63,569 bases of DNA. Source: Candidatus Micrarchaeia archaeon (GTDB taxonomy: Archaea; Micrarchaeota; Micrarchaeia; Burarchaeales; JAVZCV01). Positions 2-62,239 of the stretch are shown piece by piece. Below the pieces are notes generated by a model. The model was not told the origin of the DNA, ran no database searches, and saw nothing but the letters and a program-made list of their open reading frames with translations. Both the position numbers and the translations under genes were made by a program. The stretch spans positions 98,427 to 161,995 of the forward strand of contig JAVZCV010000001.1 of NCBI GenBank assembly GCA_038874215.1, in the 5' to 3' direction. Numbering within the stretch: position 1 is the first letter of the stretch; every line of letters starts with the position of its first letter.

Positions 2-142
2 AAGATTAAGAAAAACAAGTTGAGTTTGAAGTTGAAGAGGCCGATATGCGTTGAGCCGAATTCACGTGTTGCGGTTTGCAGGCGCGTTGGGCAGAGATGG
101 AGGATAGCGGCATACGGCACTGTTGTTGAGGGGGTGGAGTGA
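2..142 (+). CDS. translation initiation factor aIF-2 gamma, C-terminal fragment (5' end outside window)
   Basis: Frame open from the window edge to TGA at 140-142, forming a TGATG overlap with the next gene. The peptide ...LKLKRPICVEPNSRVAVCRRVGQRWRIAAYG... resembles the conserved aIF2-gamma C-terminus (..RVAISR.IG.RWRLIGYG). Confidence 0.45.
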   Translation, partial: KIKKNKLSLKLKRPICVEPNSRVAVCRRVGQRWRIAAYGTVVEGVE

Positions 143-921
143 TGAAGCCGGGTAAAGTTGAGAAGTATATCATTGAAAGAATTGGGGAGAATGGAGCTCT
201 TTTATTTATACTCATAGACCCGTGCGATTACAGGGGGGAGAAGGAAGCCGTGAATACTGCTAAAAACGCATATGAAGGTGGAGCCGACGTGATACTCGTT
301 GGTGGAAGCATTGGGGCACAGGGTGAGCTGCTTGACAATGTAGTAAAAGGTATAAAGGACTGTGTTTCGGTTCCTGTTGTCCTCTTCCCAGGTAATATCG
401 GAACGGTATCAAAGTATGCTGATGCTGTTTATTTCATGTCCCTGCTCAACTCTCGGAATGCTTACTGGATAACTGGTGCGCAGGCTCTCGCCGCACATGC
501 TGTAAAGAAACTTGGAATTGAACCTCTGCCGGTGGGCTATGTGCTCATCCATCCCGGCGGAACTGCGGGATGGGTTGGTGATGTTAACCTTGTGCCGAGA
601 GATAAGCCCGATATAGCAGCCTCTCTTGCGCTCGCCGCAGACTGCTGTGGGTTCAGGTTTCTTGTGACGGACTGTGGTTCTGCGCCAGCAACAGGCCCTA
701 TGTCCGTTGAGATGGTGAGGGCTGTTAGAGAAGCAACGTCTGCAGTTTATATAGTTGGAGGTGGAATAAGAACTCCTAAACAGGCTCGGGAGATAACGAA
801 CGCCGGCGCTGATGCGATTCAGGTTGGTACTGCGGTTGAAAAAGTCAGCGATGTTGTTGGTGTTGTTAAAGCACTCTCAAAGGCTGTGAGGGAAGGGGCA
901 CGCTCTCGAAAGATTAAATAG
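142..921 (+). CDS. geranylgeranylglyceryl phosphate synthase (PcrB/GGGPS family)
   Basis: 260-aa ORF with motifs GGADVILVGGS and IVGGGIR typical of the PcrB/GGGPS TIM barrel. A GTG at 139 is an alternative start. Confidence 0.8.
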   Translation: MKPGKVEKYIIERIGENGALLFILIDPCDYRGEKEAVNTAKNAYEGGADVILVGGSIGAQGELLDNVVKGIKDCVSVPVVLFPGNIGTVSKYADAVYFMSLLNSRNAYWITGAQALAAHAVKKLGIEPLPVGYVLIHPGGTAGWVGDVNLVPRDKPDIAASLALAADCCGFRFLVTDCGSAPATGPMSVEMVRAVREATSAVYIVGGGIRTPKQAREITNAGADAIQVGTAVEKVSDVVGVVKALSKAVREGARSRKIK

Positions 922-10886: not shown

Positions 10887-11750
10887 CTAAAGCTCTTCAG
10901 AAACACGCAATGCTATTTCCTTAACGATATTTACAGAGATATCGTCGGTCTCATCCCCTATGACGAGCGCCTGCTGGAATGCGGCTTCAAGGAAGGCTGT
11001 CTTCATGTCTGTTCCTTCTTCCATCGCAGCGGCACAGTATTTTGCCATTTTTATTGCTCCGTCAACAGATAGCCCCTGCCTTAGTGCTGTCTCTCTCTTA
11101 GCGATTTTTCTCGTTTCTTCGGCAAATTTCATTATTGCATTTACGACACGCTCGTTAGCTTTGCTTCTATCAATTAGCACATTTCGCTCAACGCTTGCGG
11201 GCGGGTAGTCCATGAATATTGGTACAAAACGCCTCTTCAAAGCCGAGCTCATCCTGAATGTCCCTTCGTCTCCTATGTTCGCAGTTGCTACCACAACCCA
11301 GTCTTCTGGTTTTTTTATTATTGCCTCTTCATGCTCAAGGGGTAGATAACCTCGGGAGAGAAGAAGGAAAAGGCCAGAGTATGCACTTGTAGGCGCCCTC
11401 GTGAATTCATCTATCAACAGATTTTTGTTTTCTTTGAGGCAGCGCGTGACGACCCCATCTTTGAAAAGTTTCTTTCCCCCTGAAAGGGCGAGTGGATGAA
11501 AACCGCCTATCAGTTGGTATTCCGTCATGCCTTCTGTTGCCTCTATTTTCAGAAAATCTCCAAAAAATGAGAGAACGTGCTCGGCGAGCGTTGTTTTTCC
11601 ATTGCCAGCAGGCCCGTAGAGCATTATCGGGTAGCCCATCTTTATGTAGCGGAGCATTTTCAGTATAACGGGTTCTTGCCCTTTCACTTCCGAAGTTGCG
11701 ATTATTTTTTCATAATCTTCTTTTTTTATGTCTGAAGGTTTTATTGCCAT
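10887..11750 (-). CDS. AAA+ ATPase, MoxR/AAA_5 (CbbQ/NorQ-like)
   Basis: Walker A LYGPAGNGKTTLA and Walker B LLIDEFTRA; lies 8 nt upstream of the VWA partner. Confidence 0.85.
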   Translation of the reverse strand: MAIKPSDIKKEDYEKIIATSEVKGQEPVILKMLRYIKMGYPIMLYGPAGNGKTTLAEHVLSFFGDFLKIEATEGMTEYQLIGGFHPLALSGGKKLFKDGVVTRCLKENKNLLIDEFTRAPTSAYSGLFLLLSRGYLPLEHEEAIIKKPEDWVVVATANIGDEGTFRMSSALKRRFVPIFMDYPPASVERNVLIDRSKANERVVNAIMKFAEETRKIAKRETALRQGLSVDGAIKMAKYCAAAMEEGTDMKTAFLEAAFQQALVIGDETDDISVNIVKEIALRVSEEL

Positions 11751-11804
11751 AAGTTAATCTCTCGGCGCAAATATTTAAAACTCTTTAAAGCGAGGTAATA
11801 AGCC

Positions 11805-12965
11805 ATGAAAGAGAAAAACAAGAATTTTCAGAAATTCATAGAGCCGCTTGCATTAGAGGGCAATGAAAATGTTGCGGATTTTGTTGAAAATGTCTATGGG
11901 AACTCAGGATACAACGCAAGAAAGCTCGCCGATGCATGCAGGATTTTTTCAAAGATGATAAGGGAGAACTCAACGATATGCATAACGCTCGCTGGCGCCA
12001 TGACTCCCATAGGCATGGGCGGGCCTCTTATAAGACTTGTTGAAAACGGTTTCGTTGATTTCATAATATCAACGGGTGCAAACCTTTACCATGACCTGCA
12101 CCGCGCTTTTGATTACCCTGTCATGCAAGGGAGCGAAAAGGTTGACGATGAAAGACTGTATAGGCAGGGTATTTCTCGCATCTATGATGTTTTTATAGAG
12201 GACGGTGAGACTTTGTTGAATACGGACAAGTGCATTATTGATGCCATAAGAAGCACGCATATTGGCGGAACGGTGTCAACGGCAGAGCTTAACAACACGA
12301 TAGGCAGAAGGGTACTTGCAACAGCGCCCCATCCCGAGAAATCTCTGCTTGCAACATGCGCCAAGCATGATGTGCCCGTGTATACGCCCGCAGCTGGTGA
12401 TTCTTCAATAGGCATGAACATCGTGCTTCCATACATATTCGGGCAGAGGGTTTCAATAGACCCCATTCTGGATATAATAGAAACGACCGCAATAGTGGCG
12501 GCGGCAGAAAAAAACGGTGTTGTGGTGGTGGGTGGCGGCGCACCAAAAAATTTCTACCTTCAGACGCAACCCGTTCTTTGGCAGATATTTATGGATGAAA
12601 GGGGAGGGCACGATTATTTCATACAGCTAACTACTGACTCTCCACAATGGGGTGGCTTGTCTGGCGCAACTCCGCAGGAAGCAAAATCGTGGGGCAAGGT
12701 TAGGAACCCTCACAATAATGCAACCGTAGTGTATTCCTGCGCCTCAATAACCTTCCCAATTCTTGCGCAACATGCCCTCATGCGCAACAAACCACGCACA
12801 ATGAAGAAGCTTTATGCAAAAAGGGGAGAGCTTGTAAGAAGGCTTATCAAAAAGTCCGTAGTGGGGAACAAAAGGTTGATGAGGAGAATAGGTCGTTGGG
12901 CAAAACCAGAGAAGTGTGAGGAGATATTAAGATATTACGAGAAGAAGACGGAAGGAGCATGCTGA
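11805..12965 (+). CDS. dys: deoxyhypusine synthase
   Basis: Motifs GAMTPIGMGG, STGANLYHD, GGGAPKNF, GGLSGATPQEAKSWGK. Confidence 0.9.
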   Translation: MKEKNKNFQKFIEPLALEGNENVADFVENVYGNSGYNARKLADACRIFSKMIRENSTICITLAGAMTPIGMGGPLIRLVENGFVDFIISTGANLYHDLHRAFDYPVMQGSEKVDDERLYRQGISRIYDVFIEDGETLLNTDKCIIDAIRSTHIGGTVSTAELNNTIGRRVLATAPHPEKSLLATCAKHDVPVYTPAAGDSSIGMNIVLPYIFGQRVSIDPILDIIETTAIVAAAEKNGVVVVGGGAPKNFYLQTQPVLWQIFMDERGGHDYFIQLTTDSPQWGGLSGATPQEAKSWGKVRNPHNNATVVYSCASITFPILAQHALMRNKPRTMKKLYAKRGELVRRLIKKSVVGNKRLMRRIGRWAKPEKCEEILRYYEKKTEGAC

Positions 12966-13007: not shown

Positions 13008-13305
13008 GCAGCGGATAGGTCGGGAGGCTAGGGGTCTCCTGTAACCACAAATCCCCTTGCGGTGGGACCGAAAGACCGGTTGCGCTTCTGTCGGGTGCAG
13101 GCACGCTCTGCGTACTGGCGTTGAGGTCTTGCCTCTTGGGACGATGCGCTATGTGAAACGGGTCAGGCCGGAAGGAGCAGCCCTAAGCATAAACGTCATC
13201 TTTCAAAAAAGACGGTGAAATGCATCGTGCTCAGAGCCAACAGGACCGAGCAAAGGCGCAGAAAACGGTCTGTATCCGAAGATGCAAGACCGGAGCCTCC
13301 GCTGC
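13008..13305 (+). ncRNA. ffs: signal recognition particle (7S) RNA
   Basis: Universal helix-8 motif GGTCAGGCCGGAAGGAGCAGCC at 13161-13182 and Alu-domain CCTGTAACC. The 5' GCAGCGGA..GGAGGCT pairs with the 3' AGCCTCCGCTGC. About 298 nt, the typical archaeal size. Confidence 0.9.
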
Positions 13306-13309
13306 ATGC

Positions 13310-13508
13310 GCTGGGATCGCCTAGCGGTTCAGGCTTTGTAGCTAAAAGCTTGAGCAAAGAACAAAGCTTGCGTTAAAGGGCGGCAGCCTGCTATGTTCCT
13401 TCCTGCGTGGAAAGGAAAAGCAGCAAGCTGTTTGGCCATTCGGCCATCGTGGGTTCGAAAGAGTCGCCCATTCATAAACTGCCTCGTCCGAAAATCCCAC
13501 TCCCAGCG
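13310..13508 (+). tRNA. tRNA-Ser(GCU) with three predicted introns
   Basis: Acceptor GCTGGGA/TCCCAGC plus discriminator G. D-arm GCC-TAGCGGTTCA-GGC. Anticodon stem GCAGC/GCTGT with loop CT-GCT-A|A. Long variable arm TTGGCCATTCGGCCATC. T-stem GTGGG/CCCAC. Exons about 13310-13334, 13382-13393, 13426-13459, 13495-13508 (85 nt mature). Introns about 47, 32 and 35 nt. Confidence 0.8.
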
Positions 13509-13510
13509 CT

Positions 13511-13527
13511 TAATTATTTTTTTCTCT
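13511..13527 (+). terminator. oligo-T tract downstream of SRP RNA/tRNA-Ser
   Basis: TAATTATTTTTTTCTCTT immediately 3' of the tRNA; archaeal termination commonly occurs at T-runs. Confidence 0.4.
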
Positions 13528-13570
13528 TAATATGCAACATCTGCGAGCATGGGCTGACGACTCTGATACA

Positions 13571-13578
13571 TTTAAAAT
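13571..13578 (+). promoter_or_regulatory. TATA-box candidate for tRNA-Ile
   Basis: TTTAAAAT about 30-35 nt upstream of the tRNA 5' end. Confidence 0.4.
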
Positions 13579-13607
13579 CCTCACACGCATAACGTTATCC
13601 GTCATGC

Positions 13608-13682
13608 GGGCCCATAGCTTAGCCTGGTTGGAGCGCTCGGCTGATAACCGGGAGGTCGCCGGTTCGAATCCGGCTGGGCCCA
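13608..13682 (+). tRNA. tRNA-Ile(GAU), intron-less
   Basis: Clean cloverleaf: acceptor GGGCCCA/TGGGCCC+A, D-stem GCTT/GAGC, anticodon stem CTCGG/CCGGG with loop CT-GAT-AA, T-arm GCCGG-TTCGAAT-CCGGC. Confidence 0.93.
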
Positions 13683-13750
13683 CTAATTGTAGATTCCTTT
13701 ATATACTTTTTTTACCATAATATTATCTAAAACGATTTGCGGGTTATTGA

Positions 13751-14941
13751 ATGGATGAAAAGAAAAGAGGTAAGGATATTTTTTACAAGGATTTAGAGCG
13801 GGAGATAGAAGGGAGGAATGTTTCGGTAGGGTTTGAAAGAAAAGGGGATAGGCTGATAATAAAGGCTGAGAAGGTTAGGGGGAATGTAGAAAGCATAAAA
13901 CGCGCGATAAAGGAGCAGGTAGAAAAAAGGCGTGGGGACAACGAATTTTTACAGCTTGTTGAAGAAATTGAGAGAGATATATCAAAAATAGAGGGAGAGT
14001 TGCGCATACTTAGAAAAAAACTGGAAGTTTTGCGCTTCGCTGCAGAGGAGTATGTCTCCGAGCCAGCTGCGGGTAGAAGTGAGGGCGAGGATGAGGAACA
14101 AAGTGAGGCAGTTGTGTATGCTGTTGCTACTGGGAAAAAAAAGGAGTTTGAGGCTGGAAGAAATGAAAATAATGGTAATCCGGGGATGCACGCAGTGAAT
14201 TCAAAAAAACAAAGGCCCGAAATTCCGCCCGCACCAGACTACATACCCGTAATAGAGTTTAGTTCTTCTTCTGATGAAGAAAAAGGTGTGAGGGTTGAGT
14301 CTGGCTGGAGAGACCTATATCCCGAGAATACGGTGGCATTCAACACTGATTTCATGATGGGAATAGAGAAAGTAGGTATAGCGGAGGAAAAGAAGGGGGA
14401 GGAGCGAGTCCTTGAGATAAACGAGAGAATAGCAAGGGAGATTGCAAGCATTGCAGAATTCGGAGTGCAGAAGGAGAGCGAATCTCCTTTTGAAGGTTTT
14501 TTTGGAAGCGTCTCTTCTGTTATATCGTCTTTTGTAGCGTACCCTTCAAAGTTTTTGGGTAAGAAGGAGAGCTCCGAGGCTCAGGAGTGGAAAGCCGGCA
14601 TGGAGCCTGTGGGGAGAGAGAGTTATGACGGCAGTTTTGAAAAAGCACAGACAAGCACTGAAACGTATCCTGTAGAAGAATCGTTAGAAAAGCCGATAAC
14701 GATGCCCGAGGCACCCGAATATGTTCCTCAGATAACTGAATTTGACATATTTCGGGGGAAGTATCTTAGCTTGCAGTCAAACAGGGCGCTTACAGTAGAG
14801 GAGATTGCAAGGATTACGGGGGATAACGAAGCGGATGTGAAGGGGTGGCTAACAAGACTTGTAGGTGAAGGGGTTGTAAAAAAAGTAAAAAGAAGAAAGA
14901 AGGGCGCATATGTAGATGCGTATATTATTTTAGAAAAATAG
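13751..14941 (+). CDS. hypothetical acidic protein with N-terminal coiled coil and C-terminal winged-helix-like domain
   Basis: 396-aa ORF. Charged heptad-like N-terminus, low-complexity E/S-rich middle, C-terminus LTVEEIARITGDNEADVKGWLTRLVGEGVVKKV resembling a wHTH. Confidence 0.6.
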   Translation: MDEKKRGKDIFYKDLEREIEGRNVSVGFERKGDRLIIKAEKVRGNVESIKRAIKEQVEKRRGDNEFLQLVEEIERDISKIEGELRILRKKLEVLRFAAEEYVSEPAAGRSEGEDEEQSEAVVYAVATGKKKEFEAGRNENNGNPGMHAVNSKKQRPEIPPAPDYIPVIEFSSSSDEEKGVRVESGWRDLYPENTVAFNTDFMMGIEKVGIAEEKKGEERVLEINERIAREIASIAEFGVQKESESPFEGFFGSVSSVISSFVAYPSKFLGKKESSEAQEWKAGMEPVGRESYDGSFEKAQTSTETYPVEESLEKPITMPEAPEYVPQITEFDIFRGKYLSLQSNRALTVEEIARITGDNEADVKGWLTRLVGEGVVKKVKRRKKGAYVDAYIILEK

Positions 14942-56747: not shown

Positions 56748-57809
56748 CTAATACACGATTTCTTTCAGCTTTCCCATTTCCATTGCGTTCTTTATTTCTC
56801 GCGCTATTCTTCTTCCAGTGCTCATCGGCTCATCAAATAAATAAACAGAGTATGGCGAGCCGTCTGGGAAAAGATTAGTGCCCGCAACTATGCGGGCGCT
56901 TATCTCAAACACATAGAACCTGAAATCCTCATCGCATATCATCTCTATGCAGAATGGCCCCGGTATCCCTCCCATCAGCCTATCGGCAGCTTCTACAACG
57001 CGCCTGCCCATCTCCATCATCTCTGGAAGCAGGCTCTCCCTTACTGCAACGGGCGCATTCCCCACAACTCCGAAAGAAGGCTCTACTATTACTCCTGCGC
57101 TCATCGCCCTGTGTATATCCTCCACATTCGTCTCAATCCTCCTGTCTATTGATAGAAGCTCAATTGAGCCCTTTGAAGCGGGGTATGCGTCTTTTGAGAG
57201 GGGTGTGTAGAAGTAGTGAGGGTAGAAGCGCGTTCCCACTATGTACTCCTGTATCATCGCCCCTTCCGTGCTTTTTCCTTTCGTTTTTGCAAGAAAGTCC
57301 TCATAGCTGCTCACAACGATATAACCCTTTCCGCCCTTCGCACCTCCGAATTTCACGAGGCAGGGGCGGTCTATTTCCTCTGGCTTGAATATTTTTGGCA
57401 CGCGGAGTTTTGCCTCCCTCATCCACTCAAACATCTTTTCTCTGCTCCTCTCCCACATCAGGACTCGCCTGTTTCCGAATATCGGTATCTCAAGCTCCTC
57501 AAGATTTTTCACATACTCTATAAGCGAGCCGTGCGGAATTAGAATTGCGTTTTTCTCAACGAGCTCGCCAACAACATCGGGAAGGTCTGAGAATTCCTTC
57601 ATGCATATCAGCTCATCGGGCTTCGCAAGCCTGAAAGAGCGGTAAACCTCAAGCTTTCTCGGTATTGAAATCCCTATCGTCTTTATTCCTTCTCTCCTTG
57701 CCCCGTGGAAAATTTGGAGAGCGCTGTGCGAGCATATCGTCGCTATTTTTGGCTCCTCATACTCTTCAAGAATTTTGTGAATCCTTTCCCTCGCTATCAA
57801 CACAATCAC
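56748..57809 (-). CDS. purP: 5-formaminoimidazole-4-carboxamide ribonucleotide (FAICAR) synthetase PurP, paralog 2
   Basis: ATP-grasp PurP pattern (IATICSHSALQIFHGARREG, IPIFGNR, STGRRIA). Start placed at the GTG at 57809, 5 nt after the upstream stop; the track's ATG at 57905 would overlap the upstream gene by 91 nt. Confidence 0.85.
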   Translation of the reverse strand: MIVLIARERIHKILEEYEEPKIATICSHSALQIFHGARREGIKTIGISIPRKLEVYRSFRLAKPDELICMKEFSDLPDVVGELVEKNAILIPHGSLIEYVKNLEELEIPIFGNRRVLMWERSREKMFEWMREAKLRVPKIFKPEEIDRPCLVKFGGAKGGKGYIVVSSYEDFLAKTKGKSTEGAMIQEYIVGTRFYPHYFYTPLSKDAYPASKGSIELLSIDRRIETNVEDIHRAMSAGVIVEPSFGVVGNAPVAVRESLLPEMMEMGRRVVEAADRLMGGIPGPFCIEMICDEDFRFYVFEISARIVAGTNLFPDGSPYSVYLFDEPMSTGRRIAREIKNAMEMGKLKEIVY

Positions 57810-57814
57810 CCAAA

Positions 57815-58912
57815 CTATGTTGTGATTTCCTTCATCCTTCCAGTCTCCTCCGCTTCCCTTATCTCTATCGCTATTCTCCTTCCCGTGCTCATAGGCTCTC
57901 TCCAAAGGTATTCCGTGTATGGGGTGAATCTCGTGCCTGGCGAACCGGGCACGCGCATGCTCACATCAAAAATGACTGGCTTCTCGCCTTTTTCTTCTGG
58001 GACTACTGCACCCTGCAAAGCAAAAGGCCCGATTATCCCAGGAGGATATTCTTTTTTGCTCGCCTCAACGAATCTCTCACCAAGCTCAAAAACCTCTTCA
58101 AGAAGGCTTTCCCTGAGGGTGCATGCAACATGGCCAACCTCTATGTTTTTCACGCGCACGTATTTGAGAAGCTCCAGTTGCTCCTTTGCGGGCAGGCGCA
58201 GAATTCCGTCTATATTCGTCTGCCTTCTCATGTCTATCCCGAGCAGTTCAAGCTCGCCGCTCAGCGGAGAGTAGAAGTAGTTGAAGTTGAACTGCGCCCC
58301 AACGACATACTCCTCTATCACGGCGCTCTCAAGCCCTTCCTTCGTTATGATGCACTTTTCAAGCATCTCCCTCGCCTTCTGCTCATACTCCTCATAGCTC
58401 GTTGCGAAGAAGAATGCCCTCTCATACGAGCGCTTTGCCTCTGGCGCCTTCACTATGACGAGCGTGTCTATCTCCTCTGGCTTGAGCTGGCGGGGAAACC
58501 TTATTCCCGCTTTCTTAAGCAGGTAGTACTGGTTTTTCTTTTCGTAGCGCTCCTCAGCCCTGAGCATCCACCTGTTCCCGAAGATGGGCACATTGAATTT
58601 TTTCTCAATATTATCGTATCCGACATAAACTGAGAAGGAGCGGTTTGGGACGAAAACGCATTCAAGCTCTTGCAGTTTCTCCTTAACAGGCTCATTCACG
58701 ATATCTGCGAATTTATCAAGCAGTATTATCTCGTCAATTATCCCGATTTCCCTTCCATGGGCGTTCCTGCACCTATGCCGCACGTATGTTTTCTCCCTTC
58801 CCCTCTGGCATACTACGACAGTTTTTAGCCTCTCCTTTTTCGCACCTTCGCATATGTCAAGCGCGGAGTGGCTTCCGAGAGAGCAAACAGCTACCATTAA
58901 TCCGTTATACAC
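57815..58912 (-). CDS. purP: FAICAR synthetase PurP, paralog 1
   Basis: VCSLGSHSALDICEGAKKE, VPIFGNRWMLR, STGRRIAIEI: same family architecture as the downstream gene. Confidence 0.88.
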   Translation of the reverse strand: MYNGLMVAVCSLGSHSALDICEGAKKERLKTVVVCQRGREKTYVRHRCRNAHGREIGIIDEIILLDKFADIVNEPVKEKLQELECVFVPNRSFSVYVGYDNIEKKFNVPIFGNRWMLRAEERYEKKNQYYLLKKAGIRFPRQLKPEEIDTLVIVKAPEAKRSYERAFFFATSYEEYEQKAREMLEKCIITKEGLESAVIEEYVVGAQFNFNYFYSPLSGELELLGIDMRRQTNIDGILRLPAKEQLELLKYVRVKNIEVGHVACTLRESLLEEVFELGERFVEASKKEYPPGIIGPFALQGAVVPEEKGEKPVIFDVSMRVPGSPGTRFTPYTEYLWREPMSTGRRIAIEIREAEETGRMKEITT

Positions 58913-61968: not shown

Positions 61969-61980
61969 TTTTATATATTT
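61969..61980 (+). promoter_or_regulatory. TATA-box candidate for tRNA-Leu
   Basis: TTTTATATATTT centred about 27 nt upstream of the tRNA 5' end. Confidence 0.5.
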
Positions 61981-62001: not shown

Positions 62002-62239
62002 GCAGGGGTGCCGGAGCCTGGTCAATTAGCCCTTTTCTTTCATGAAGAAAAGTGCTAAGACCCCAAAAGAAACGGGCAGACCAAACGGGGCAGACTCAAG
62101 TAAACTTTTCTTTCAAAAAGAAAAGTTTAATCAAAAGAAAGAGACATCTGCTGGCTTAGGCCTACGAGAGTTCAAAGAGAAACCGCCAGCGCGGTTTCCT
62201 CTACCTTCCAGCAACTCGGAACAAATCTCTCCCCCTGCA
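62002..62239 (+). tRNA. tRNA-Leu(CAA) with three predicted introns
   Basis: Acceptor GCAGGGG/CCCCTGC+A. D-arm CCG-GAGCCTGGTCAA|A-CGG. Anticodon stem GCAGA/TCTGC with loop CT-CAA-G|A. Variable arm TGGCTTAGGCCTAC. T-stem GAGAG/CTCTC with T-loop TTCAAA|T. Exons 62002-62025, 62085-62100, 62146-62176, 62226-62239 (85 nt). Introns about 59, 45 and 49 nt. Confidence 0.8.

Follow-up and report, generated by a model that had tools for sequence, protein, structure and literature searches.

A tRNA-Leu(CAA) gene with three predicted introns in a Micrarchaeota-like archaeon, two of them probably built from copies of a dispersed module

The 63,569-nt stretch of DNA analysed here (the window) probably carries a functional tRNA-Leu(CAA) gene with three bulge-helix-bulge (BHB) introns, two of which would have been built from separately arrived copies of a dispersed module. 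The gene, belonging to a Micrarchaeota-like DPANN archaeon, would be transcribed as a precursor of ~240 nt from a TATA-type promoter, its three introns would be cut out by an archaeal splicing endonuclease, and the exons would be joined by a tRNA ligase. The usual archaeal tRNA ligase is RtcB. Introns 1 and 2 would be alike because each is mostly one copy of a conserved module of ~45 nt, which is dispersed in DPANN genomes at transcribed non-coding sites; the two copies, of different subfamilies, would have arrived separately, neither having been copied from the other, and the 3' splice-site half of intron 1 may derive from a short stretch of the neighbouring exon copied in tandem. The direction and the mechanism of the spread of the module, as well as its role, are matters that we infer. 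The GuaA subunit B of the locus matches many proteins at ~70% identity, almost all of them bearing the names Candidatus Micrarchaeota, Micrarchaeia, Bilamarchaeaceae or Anstonellaceae, and the gene order purP-purP-guaA is common to the locus and a Micrarchaeota genome, which points to a DPANN archaeon and not to a member of the Thermoproteales.

When the exons of 62002-62239 are spliced together, the 85-nt product is called as tRNA-Leu(caa) by ARAGORN and has a normal class II cloverleaf, with an acceptor stem of 7 bp, a D-stem of 3 bp, anticodon and T-stems of 5 bp each and a long variable arm. This bears out an earlier note on this DNA, in which a class II tRNA-Leu(CAA) of 85 nt with three introns had been proposed; the exon strings given there at 62002-62025, 62085-62100, 62146-62176 and 62226-62239 match the sequence, and the introns have the claimed lengths of 59, 45 and 49 nt. 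The CCA is not encoded at the 3' end of the gene. In the genomic sequence of the window the unspliced gene was missed by both ARAGORN and Rfam. The features of the locus are as follows.

61970..61977, + strand: TTTATATA, resembling a TATA box and lying 32 nt before the 5' end of the tRNA; a putative archaeal promoter read from the sequence
62002..62025, + strand: exon 1, with the acceptor 5' strand, the D-stem 5' strand and the D-loop; positions 1-21
62026..62084, + strand: intron 1, 59 nt, in the D-loop at about 21/22; module copy of the 'CCC' subfamily, with P1 at 62026-30/62054-58, the P2 inner hairpin at 62032-39/62045-52 and the tail at 62065-72
62073-62084: 3' end of intron 1, 12 nt that repeat the beginning of exon 2 in degenerate form
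62085..62100, + strand: exon 2, with the D-stem 3' strand, the anticodon stem 5' strand and the loop through G37; anticodon CAA
62101..62145, + strand: intron 2, 45 nt, at the canonical position 37/38; nearly all of it a module copy of the 'AATC' subfamily, with P1 at 62101-04/62126-29, P2 at 62105-12/62118-25 and the tail at 62133-40
62146..62175, + strand: exon 3, with A38, the anticodon stem 3' strand, the long variable arm, the T-stem 5' strand and the T-loop to A58
62176..62224, + strand: intron 3, 49 nt, in the T-loop at 58/59, with its own hairpin GAAACCGC-CAGC-GCGGTTTC and without the module
62225..62239, + strand: exon 4, with the remainder of the T-loop, the T-stem 3' strand, the acceptor 3' strand and the discriminator A73

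The usual archaeal spacing between TATA box and start suggests the promoter role of TTTATATA. An intronless tRNA-Leu(CAA) of another archaeon (L042/L044) is identical to the spliced product at 77 of 85 positions. Of the eight differences, six make up three compensating pairs in the anticodon and T-stems; the remaining two are isolated changes, one in the variable region and one in the T-loop. The 24-nt exon 1 occurs unchanged in eight metagenome tRNA-Leu genes, in all of which (8/8) ACGGG follows directly, without a D-loop intron, and this metagenome scan with exon 1 returned no close orthologue carrying the introns of the window. A 71-aa ORF, previously taken for an artefact, is most likely spurious indeed, since it overlaps the tRNA gene and no gene is called there in the public contig that carries the locus; this contig, a metagenome assembly of 13 kb, is the only public one with the neighbouring protein. 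Another tRNA gene of the window, tRNA-Ser(GCU), also has three introns and also splices into a valid tRNA; it was found through one cluster in a short-word BLAST search of ~27 tRNA sequences against the window, the rest of the matches being mostly noise. Two of the three tRNA genes in the window were missed by standard tRNA finders, so the tRNA sets of such genomes are probably undercounted.

The splice junctions were placed by the BHB rule, which calls for two 3-nt bulges flanking a helix of 4 bp, with cleavage after the second base of each bulge. Applied to tRNA genes at two other loci (L011 and L012), the rule recovered the canonical 37/38 junctions with fully paired central helices (G-U allowed), which supports it. 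BHB folding had been named beforehand as a check on the proposed junctions, and BHB features were found at all three exon-intron pairs. In intron 1 the central helix GGUC (62020-23)/GACC (62079-82) is paired at 4/4 positions between bulges AAU and AAA, while the outer helices are weak, giving a motif of the relaxed type. In intron 2 the central helix CUCA/AGAG is paired at 3/4 positions, with bulges AGU and ACA and an outer helix of 6 bp. In intron 3 GUUC (62170-73)/GAAC (62219-22) is paired at 4/4 positions, with bulges AAA and AAA and an outer helix of 4 bp. For this T-loop intron the earlier length and spliced product hold, but the junction does not, since the best BHB register lies one base upstream, at 62176-62224. 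The hairpins described earlier within introns 1, 2 and 3 fold as claimed, with z-scores of -3.0, -3.35 and -4.0, respectively, against shuffled sequence, and minimum-energy folds of the introns with their exon flanks recover the same helices for introns 1 and 2. Excision at the three junctions is a prediction from these motifs.

The weak outer helix of intron 1 and the central mismatch of intron 2 mean that an enzyme tolerant of relaxed motifs would be needed. The window encodes no splicing endonuclease homologue detectable by tblastn; a related contig, L051, contains a tRNA_int_endo gene. For Candidatus Micrarchaeum, an epsilon2 endonuclease of broad specificity and tRNA genes heavily disrupted by introns are documented (PMC3239211), and an epsilon2-type endonuclease may, by lineage, be the splicing enzyme here too. 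Three introns per tRNA gene is the known archaeal maximum (PMC3239211; PMC4033280).

Introns 1 and 2 resemble each other beyond chance. The identical strings reported for them, CTTTTCTTTCA at 62032-62042 and 62105-62115 and AAGAAAAGT at 62045-62053 and 62118-62126, were recovered at these coordinates, and a third common block, CAAAAGAAA at 62064-62072 and 62132-62140, can be added to them, which the earlier note had not listed. The window, 63.5 kb long, holds exactly two occurrences of the hairpin CTTTTCTT-N(3-9)-AAGAAAAG, while 100 shuffles yielded none, and local alignment of the two introns scores 36, against a null maximum of 21 (0/1000 shuffles). None of the other 14 pairings of the six tRNA introns of the window stands out, the lowest value, 19/1000 shuffles, being unremarkable for 14 comparisons. 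The idea that the shared strings might be a low-complexity motif found throughout the genome did not hold in the window, where only two copies of the motif exist; the motif is nonetheless common across genomes. An exact match to the 11-mer at 13834-13844 on the minus strand lies within a coding region and was set aside as a chance match.

The likeness would be explained by a module of ~45 nt in which a covarying outer stem and the invariant CUUUUCUU/AAGAAAAG hairpin are followed by a short linker and a AAAAGAAA tail. When 21 copies are aligned, neither the hairpin nor the tail varies, the U directly after the hairpin is nearly invariant, and the outer stem covaries: 28 cells are changed on both sides, a score that was reached by 0/500 shuffles, and slid registers score much lower. 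The sequence of the module is unchanged across genomes of 33% to 56% G+C. A covariance model derived from this alignment detects two copies and no others in the window, intron 1 with 56 bits and intron 2 with 58.6 bits; the sense strand of the window copies scores 56-59 bits versus 18-31 bits for the antisense strand, and the archaeal and bacterial copies in the model alignment score 44-63 bits. Rfam 15 has no family overlapping the module in the window, nor, at E<=1, in eight related loci. Among ~8 million searchable papers, none contains the hairpin sequence in any of four versions, and keyword searches on DPANN tRNA introns gave nothing on the module.

Of the 36 loci returned by a scan of one genome per species for the 20-base core CTTTTCTTTCA-NN-AAGAAAAGT, 15 are archaeal; they come from Aenigmatarchaeota, Iainarchaeota, Micrarchaeota, Woesearchaeota, unclassified archaea and a single bin with the label Methanosarcinales. 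The AAAAGAAA tail follows 5-12 nt downstream of the hairpin in 13 of the 15 archaeal loci. Four viral contigs with the hairpin contain no convincing module, and two full-length model matches in them reach only 26-31 bits. In six genomes, genes for tRNA-Leu, Tyr, Ser, Gln, Ile and Met carry the module in D-loop, 37/38 or T-loop introns. The host tRNA genes listed below were spliced by hand, and all the products were accepted by ARAGORN.

L011, Micrarchaeota: tRNA-Tyr, element in the 37/38 intron
L012, Aenigmatarchaeota: tRNA-Ser(UGA) with three introns, element in the 37/38 intron
L006, unclassified archaeon: tRNA-Ser(GCU), whose D-loop intron has the hairpin
L002, Aenigmatarchaeota: tRNA-Gln, element in the D-loop intron and a variant in the trailer
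L031, Aenigmatarchaeota: tRNA-Ile with three introns, element in the D-loop intron, with a variant form in the intron of the T-loop and a further copy in the trailer
L014, unclassified archaeon: tRNA-Met with three introns, element in the T-loop intron

The tRNA-Leu gene of the window is therefore one case of a pattern that recurs in DPANN archaea. Copies of the module also lie in tRNA trailers, spacers and gaps between protein genes. The copies outside tRNA genes are intergenic and have the same direction as the flanking genes, often 0-30 nt from a stop codon and as close as 12-25 nt before the next gene (L034, L035); one lies between the genes of ribosomal proteins L39e and L31e. A scan for BHB motifs around these copies was uninformative, as shuffled controls passed about as often as the real sequences and strict criteria missed some of the known intron copies.

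The earlier note had suggested that introns 1 and 2 are paralogous, one having arisen from the other within the gene. Their relationship by descent stands, being beyond chance; the copying of one from the other inside the gene is not supported. Such an intragenic origin, by duplication or intron transposition of one hairpin-bearing intron with later divergence, would agree with the distance of only 16 nt between the two, with the 39 of 59 aligned columns that they share and with their three identical blocks. Similar introns spreading among canonical and non-canonical positions are documented in Thermoproteales (PMC4033280; PMC4090602), and local duplication did happen at this locus, where intron 1 holds a tandem copy of exon sequence. 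The intragenic origin nevertheless appears unlikely, because what the two introns share does not reach beyond the invariant core of the module, their common positions being those unchanged in all 21 aligned copies from many genomes. In the variable columns introns 1 and 2 match at only 4 of 21, whereas intron 1 matches its closest relative, the T-loop intron of tRNA-Met in L014, at 15 of 21, and intron 2 matches a 3'-UTR copy located after an ORF (L026) at 15 of 16; by BLAST, 62101-62140 and L026 are identical at 40/40 bases. The linkers place them in different subfamilies, '...CCC-AAAAGAAAC' for intron 1 together with L004, L025, L014 and L034, and '...AATC-AAAAGAAAC' for intron 2 together with L026, L035, L023, L028 and L033. 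The order of module 1, exon copy, exon 2 and module 2 is also unlike that of a simple tandem duplication of exon 2 with its intron. Given the low mutual match, the much closer relatives elsewhere and the different linker subfamilies, it is more plausible that a dispersed element arrived separately in the two introns than that an intragenic duplication produced them, although the subfamily argument uses only 16-21 variable columns of a short AT-rich element, and strong functional constraint could inflate the likeness between copies in different genomes.

Separate arrivals of the module are in line with the comparison to L053, a syntenic orthologue from Micrarchaeota located just after guaA, which has no D-loop intron and no module. 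Its 37/38 intron is 19 nt long and unrelated to intron 2, and its T-loop intron is at the same site as intron 3 but is long and unrelated in sequence. This pattern suggests that the 37/38 and T-loop positions are older, that the D-loop intron 1 is a lineage-specific gain and that the module was not an original part of intron 2. The D-loop intron is likewise absent from all eight metagenome genes whose exon 1 is identical.

Intron 1 carries a further trace that may be connected with its gain. The near-copy CGGGCAGAC (62073-62081) of the exon string CGGGGCAGAC (62086-62095), which had been pointed out before, was found there, and the last 12 nt of the intron, CGGGCAGACCAA, are a degenerate copy of the following exon CGGGGCAGAC plus a second CAA like that at the end of exon 1. 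Where the tandem copies join, the sequence provides GACC and the AA of the 3' bulge, that is, the 3' half of the splice motif. We infer that a short tandem duplication of CAAACGGGGCAGAC alone would create a cleavable helix-plus-bulge, the module then being accommodated in the loop. The model proposed for Caldiarchaeum subterraneum, in which an intron is gained via recombination with a mobile element bearing an intron-containing tRNA fragment (PMC3293823), offers a parallel, as the exon copy at 62073-62084 resembles the predicted tRNA-fragment scar (PMC3293823). Unlike in that model, the locus has no integrase, att-length repeat or inserted element, and the exon copy is only 12 nt long.

An unusual part of the module is its tail, which is the mirror image of the purine strand of the hairpin and thus the parallel complement of the pyrimidine strand. 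This relation holds across the sequence variants below, L011 being the exception.

Main form: pyrimidine strand C-U4-C-U3, tail A4-G-A3
L031, two copies: pyrimidine strand C-U3-C-U4, tail G-A3-G-A4
L002: pyrimidine strand C-U3-C-U5, tail G-A3-G-A5
L031, T-loop intron: pyrimidine strand C-U3-C-U2, tail G-A3-G-A2
Two Firmicutes loci: pyrimidine strand U4-C-U-C-U2, tail A4-G-A-G-A2
L014: pyrimidine strand U4-C-U4, tail A4-G-A4

For three asymmetric variants the mirror is the unique best of all letter permutations (9/9 of 36, 10/10 of 45 and 7/7 of 21), a direct copy scoring 5-7, and for most other variants it is among the top-scoring arrangements. Direct copies would form better Watson-Crick pairs than the mirror tails, but they are not observed; because the cores are nearly mirror-symmetric, an alternative Watson-Crick pairing of 7-8 bp between the tail and the pyrimidine strand is possible.

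We know of no copying process that produces mirror repeats, nor of a symmetric protein that could read them. A mirror repeat is the hallmark of a third strand that runs antiparallel to the purine strand in a duplex, and triple helices are formed by H-DNA mirror repeats and by the MALAT1 and PAN ENE elements. The module has the corresponding signature, a homopurine tract mirrored across a short spacer beside its pyrimidine complement, and in this it is like H-DNA, MALAT1 and the PAN ENE. The known stable RNA triplexes of MALAT1 and the PAN ENE consist of U.A-U triples with two pyrimidine strands, whereas the sense transcript of the module has one pyrimidine and two purine strands. A triplex in this transcript would require A.A-U and G.G-C triples, which to our knowledge are not an established RNA fold; instead, it could form as single-stranded DNA, or between the pyrimidine strand of the transcript and the downstream duplex. 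Tentatively, the module might be an undescribed structured element with a purine tail that mirrors its hairpin and makes an intramolecular triple helix, which spreads across DPANN and some bacteria and seeds or fills tRNA BHB introns.

Several more familiar kinds of element were considered and do not fit. The hairpin of the module is A/U-rich and is followed by a purine tail, and its copies lie 12-25 nt before co-directional genes and inside tRNA genes; this placement between co-directional genes rules out a simple intrinsic terminator. In a transcription-factor operator the third repeat would not be expected to be a mirror copy, as it is here, being neither direct nor inverted. An H-type pseudoknot was rejected as well, the sequence after the tail not being consistently complementary to the hairpin loop. 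Inspection revealed no terminal inverted repeats, the ends of the module being mirror images and not reverse complements; no clear target-site duplication was seen, the only repeat flanking intron 1 being CAA, and no transposase gene lies near the tRNA-Leu locus in the window.

The copies might also owe their likeness to convergence, the module then being an RNA motif with a function, such as binding a protein or forming a triplex, that arose or was maintained independently by structural selection. The invariance of the hairpin and tail in genomes of 33% to 56% G+C, the covariation of the outer stem, the tail that follows the hairpin sequence across variants and the sense orientation in all archaeal copies with a known host transcript indicate selection on RNA or single-stranded DNA. 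Yet identity extends to subfamily-specific linker positions, as in the complete match of intron 2 to L026 and the shared 'TGCAAGTTGCCC' and 'TCTCTAAATC' linkers, and one subfamily occurs at non-homologous sites (L028 versus L033), so that copying is the easier explanation and convergence seems rather improbable. Function and mobility of the module are not mutually exclusive. That the gene is a decaying pseudogene riddled with insertions, UUG being decoded by another tRNA, might be suspected from three interruptions within 85 nt and from the failure of standard tools to find it, but is hardly credible with all cloverleaf stems intact, six of the eight differences from the intronless relative compensating in stems, BHB geometry kept at all three junctions, a promoter-like TATA box, a tRNA-Ser(GCU) in the window that is likewise split three times and valid once spliced, and the same pattern in other DPANN genomes.

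The preferred reading, a functional gene with separately acquired module copies, has a known background. Multi-intron tRNA genes with BHB introns at non-canonical positions have been described for Thermoproteales, Korarchaeum and Candidatus Micrarchaeum ARMAN-2 (PMC4033280, PMC3239211, PMC4090602). The gene of the window is like them in having up to three short protein-spliced introns, at 37/38, D-arm and T-loop sites such as 59/60, and in its relaxed BHB motifs, which in those hosts accompany a broad-specificity endonuclease (PMC4033280, PMC3239211, PMC4090602). It differs in its Micrarchaeota-like host, whose GuaA is only ~70% identical to named relatives, and in that a module known also from outside tRNA genes underlies two of its three introns. 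Highly similar introns in different tRNA genes and at different positions are likewise known from the intron families of Thermoproteales. The transposed-intron family there, as two reviews present it, is limited to one crenarchaeal order and to the inside of tRNA genes (PMC4033280, PMC4090602), whereas the module crosses at least four DPANN phyla and is also found in trailers, spacers and intercistronic gaps. Its defined hairpin and mirrored tail set it apart from the Thermoproteales families as far as the descriptions in the reviews go, and a similar architecture may exist among them. Multi-intron tRNA genes, non-canonical positions, relaxed splice motifs and related intron families are thus already known; the DPANN setting, the reach across phyla, the defined architecture of the unit, the copies outside tRNA genes and the covariation of the mirror tail distinguish the present case.

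How archaeal tRNA genes gain non-canonical introns is still unresolved. The work on Thermoproteales, as reviewed, describes related introns in different tRNAs, but neither a mechanism nor a defined mobile unit. The locus described here and its relatives define such a unit, with its parts, subfamilies, copies inside and outside tRNA genes and differences in presence and absence between orthologues, in DPANN archaea, where the phenomenon has hardly been described. If the mirror relation reflects a triple helix, it would be a new natural example of one. The module gives a testable lead on tRNA intron gain and, if it is indeed a spreading element that seeds or fills BHB introns, it would be a concrete vehicle for the long-unexplained gain of non-canonical introns by archaeal tRNA genes.

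An RNA gene cluster at 13008-13683 on the plus strand of the window comprises SRP RNA, tRNA-Ser(GCU) and tRNA-Ile(GAU), in that order, with a gap of 5 nt between the first two; an adjoining arrangement of tRNA-Ser and SRP (7S) RNA genes occurs in some methanogens. The features of the cluster are as follows:

13008-13305, plus strand: SRP RNA (Archaea_SRP, 91.6 bits, slightly below the gathering score)
about 13310-13331/34, 13378/82-13393, 13426-13459 and 13494-13508, plus strand: exons of tRNA-Ser(GCU)
between these exons, plus strand: introns of tRNA-Ser(GCU), of about 46 nt (D-arm), 32 nt (37/38) and 34 nt (T-loop)
13608-13683, plus strand: tRNA-Ile(GAU)

The tRNA-Ser(GCU) gene (13310-13508) is the second hidden three-intron gene of the window, beside tRNA-Leu(CAA), so that two of the window's three tRNA genes have three introns each. 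Both ARAGORN and Rfam missed it in the unspliced genomic DNA, and its spliced forms were accepted by ARAGORN. The module, a conserved element of about 45 nt found in two introns of tRNA-Leu(CAA), is absent from all three introns of tRNA-Ser(GCU), the 37/38 intron of which carries a separate pyrimidine/purine hairpin of its own (UUCCUUCC/GGAAAGGAA).

A hairpin with a mirrored purine tail was also found in bacterial genomes, namely in Christensenella, Lachnospiraceae, Eubacteriales, one Wirthbacteria bin, one Bacteroidota bin and one unclassified bin, always in intergenic positions. The sites, by locus, are:

L010: 2110-2155
L030: 1774-1819
L015: 1058-1105 and 1296-1341
L036: 1273-1321 and 5747-5792
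L021: 6692-6739 and 6957-7006
L037: 2519-2565
L005: 2855-2901

Their orientation relative to the neighbouring genes is mixed or unclear. Some copies form a distinct variant (CUUUUCUCUU / AAAAGAGAA), which in L015 is followed by an intrinsic terminator. The bacterial copies may be either the same element as the archaeal module or a parallel invention.

In a woesearchaeal locus (L023, about 100-300, minus strand) a repeat of about 35 nt, including a BRE/TATA-like promoter motif (CGTCAAAAGATTTATAA), lies on both sides of the module, suggesting a local duplication that took in the module. In two contigs with an intronless tRNA-Leu(CAA) (L042, 256-460, and L044, reverse strand), the 3' end of this gene is directly repeated (ATCCCTCCCCCTGCA) about 100 nt downstream, which looks like the attachment-site scar of a tRNA-integrated element.

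Two related Micrarchaeota contigs show further features around guaA: in L053 an IS200/IS605-type Y1 transposase gene (12029-12586) separates the two guaA subunit genes, and in L051 a gene for a 155-aa protein with a tRNA-intron-endonuclease domain (11469-11936) is located directly downstream of guaA. In the window, two PurP paralogues (DUF1246/DUF1297) lie side by side at 56748-58912 on the minus strand. Their neighbours are the genes of a split GMP synthase and one gene with a TYW3 domain. Since DPANN genomes are usually metabolically reduced, this intact neighbourhood of purine and pyrimidine synthesis is notable.

Three-intron genes were also found in other DPANN archaea. In an Aenigmatarchaeota genome (L012, CP066684.1), a tRNA-Ser(UGA) gene at about 420-720 on the minus strand has three introns, of which the one at 37/38 contains the module, and its CCA end is encoded; further examples are a tRNA-Ile (L031) and a tRNA-Met (L014). 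Therefore, three-intron tRNAs seem to be widespread across DPANN archaea.
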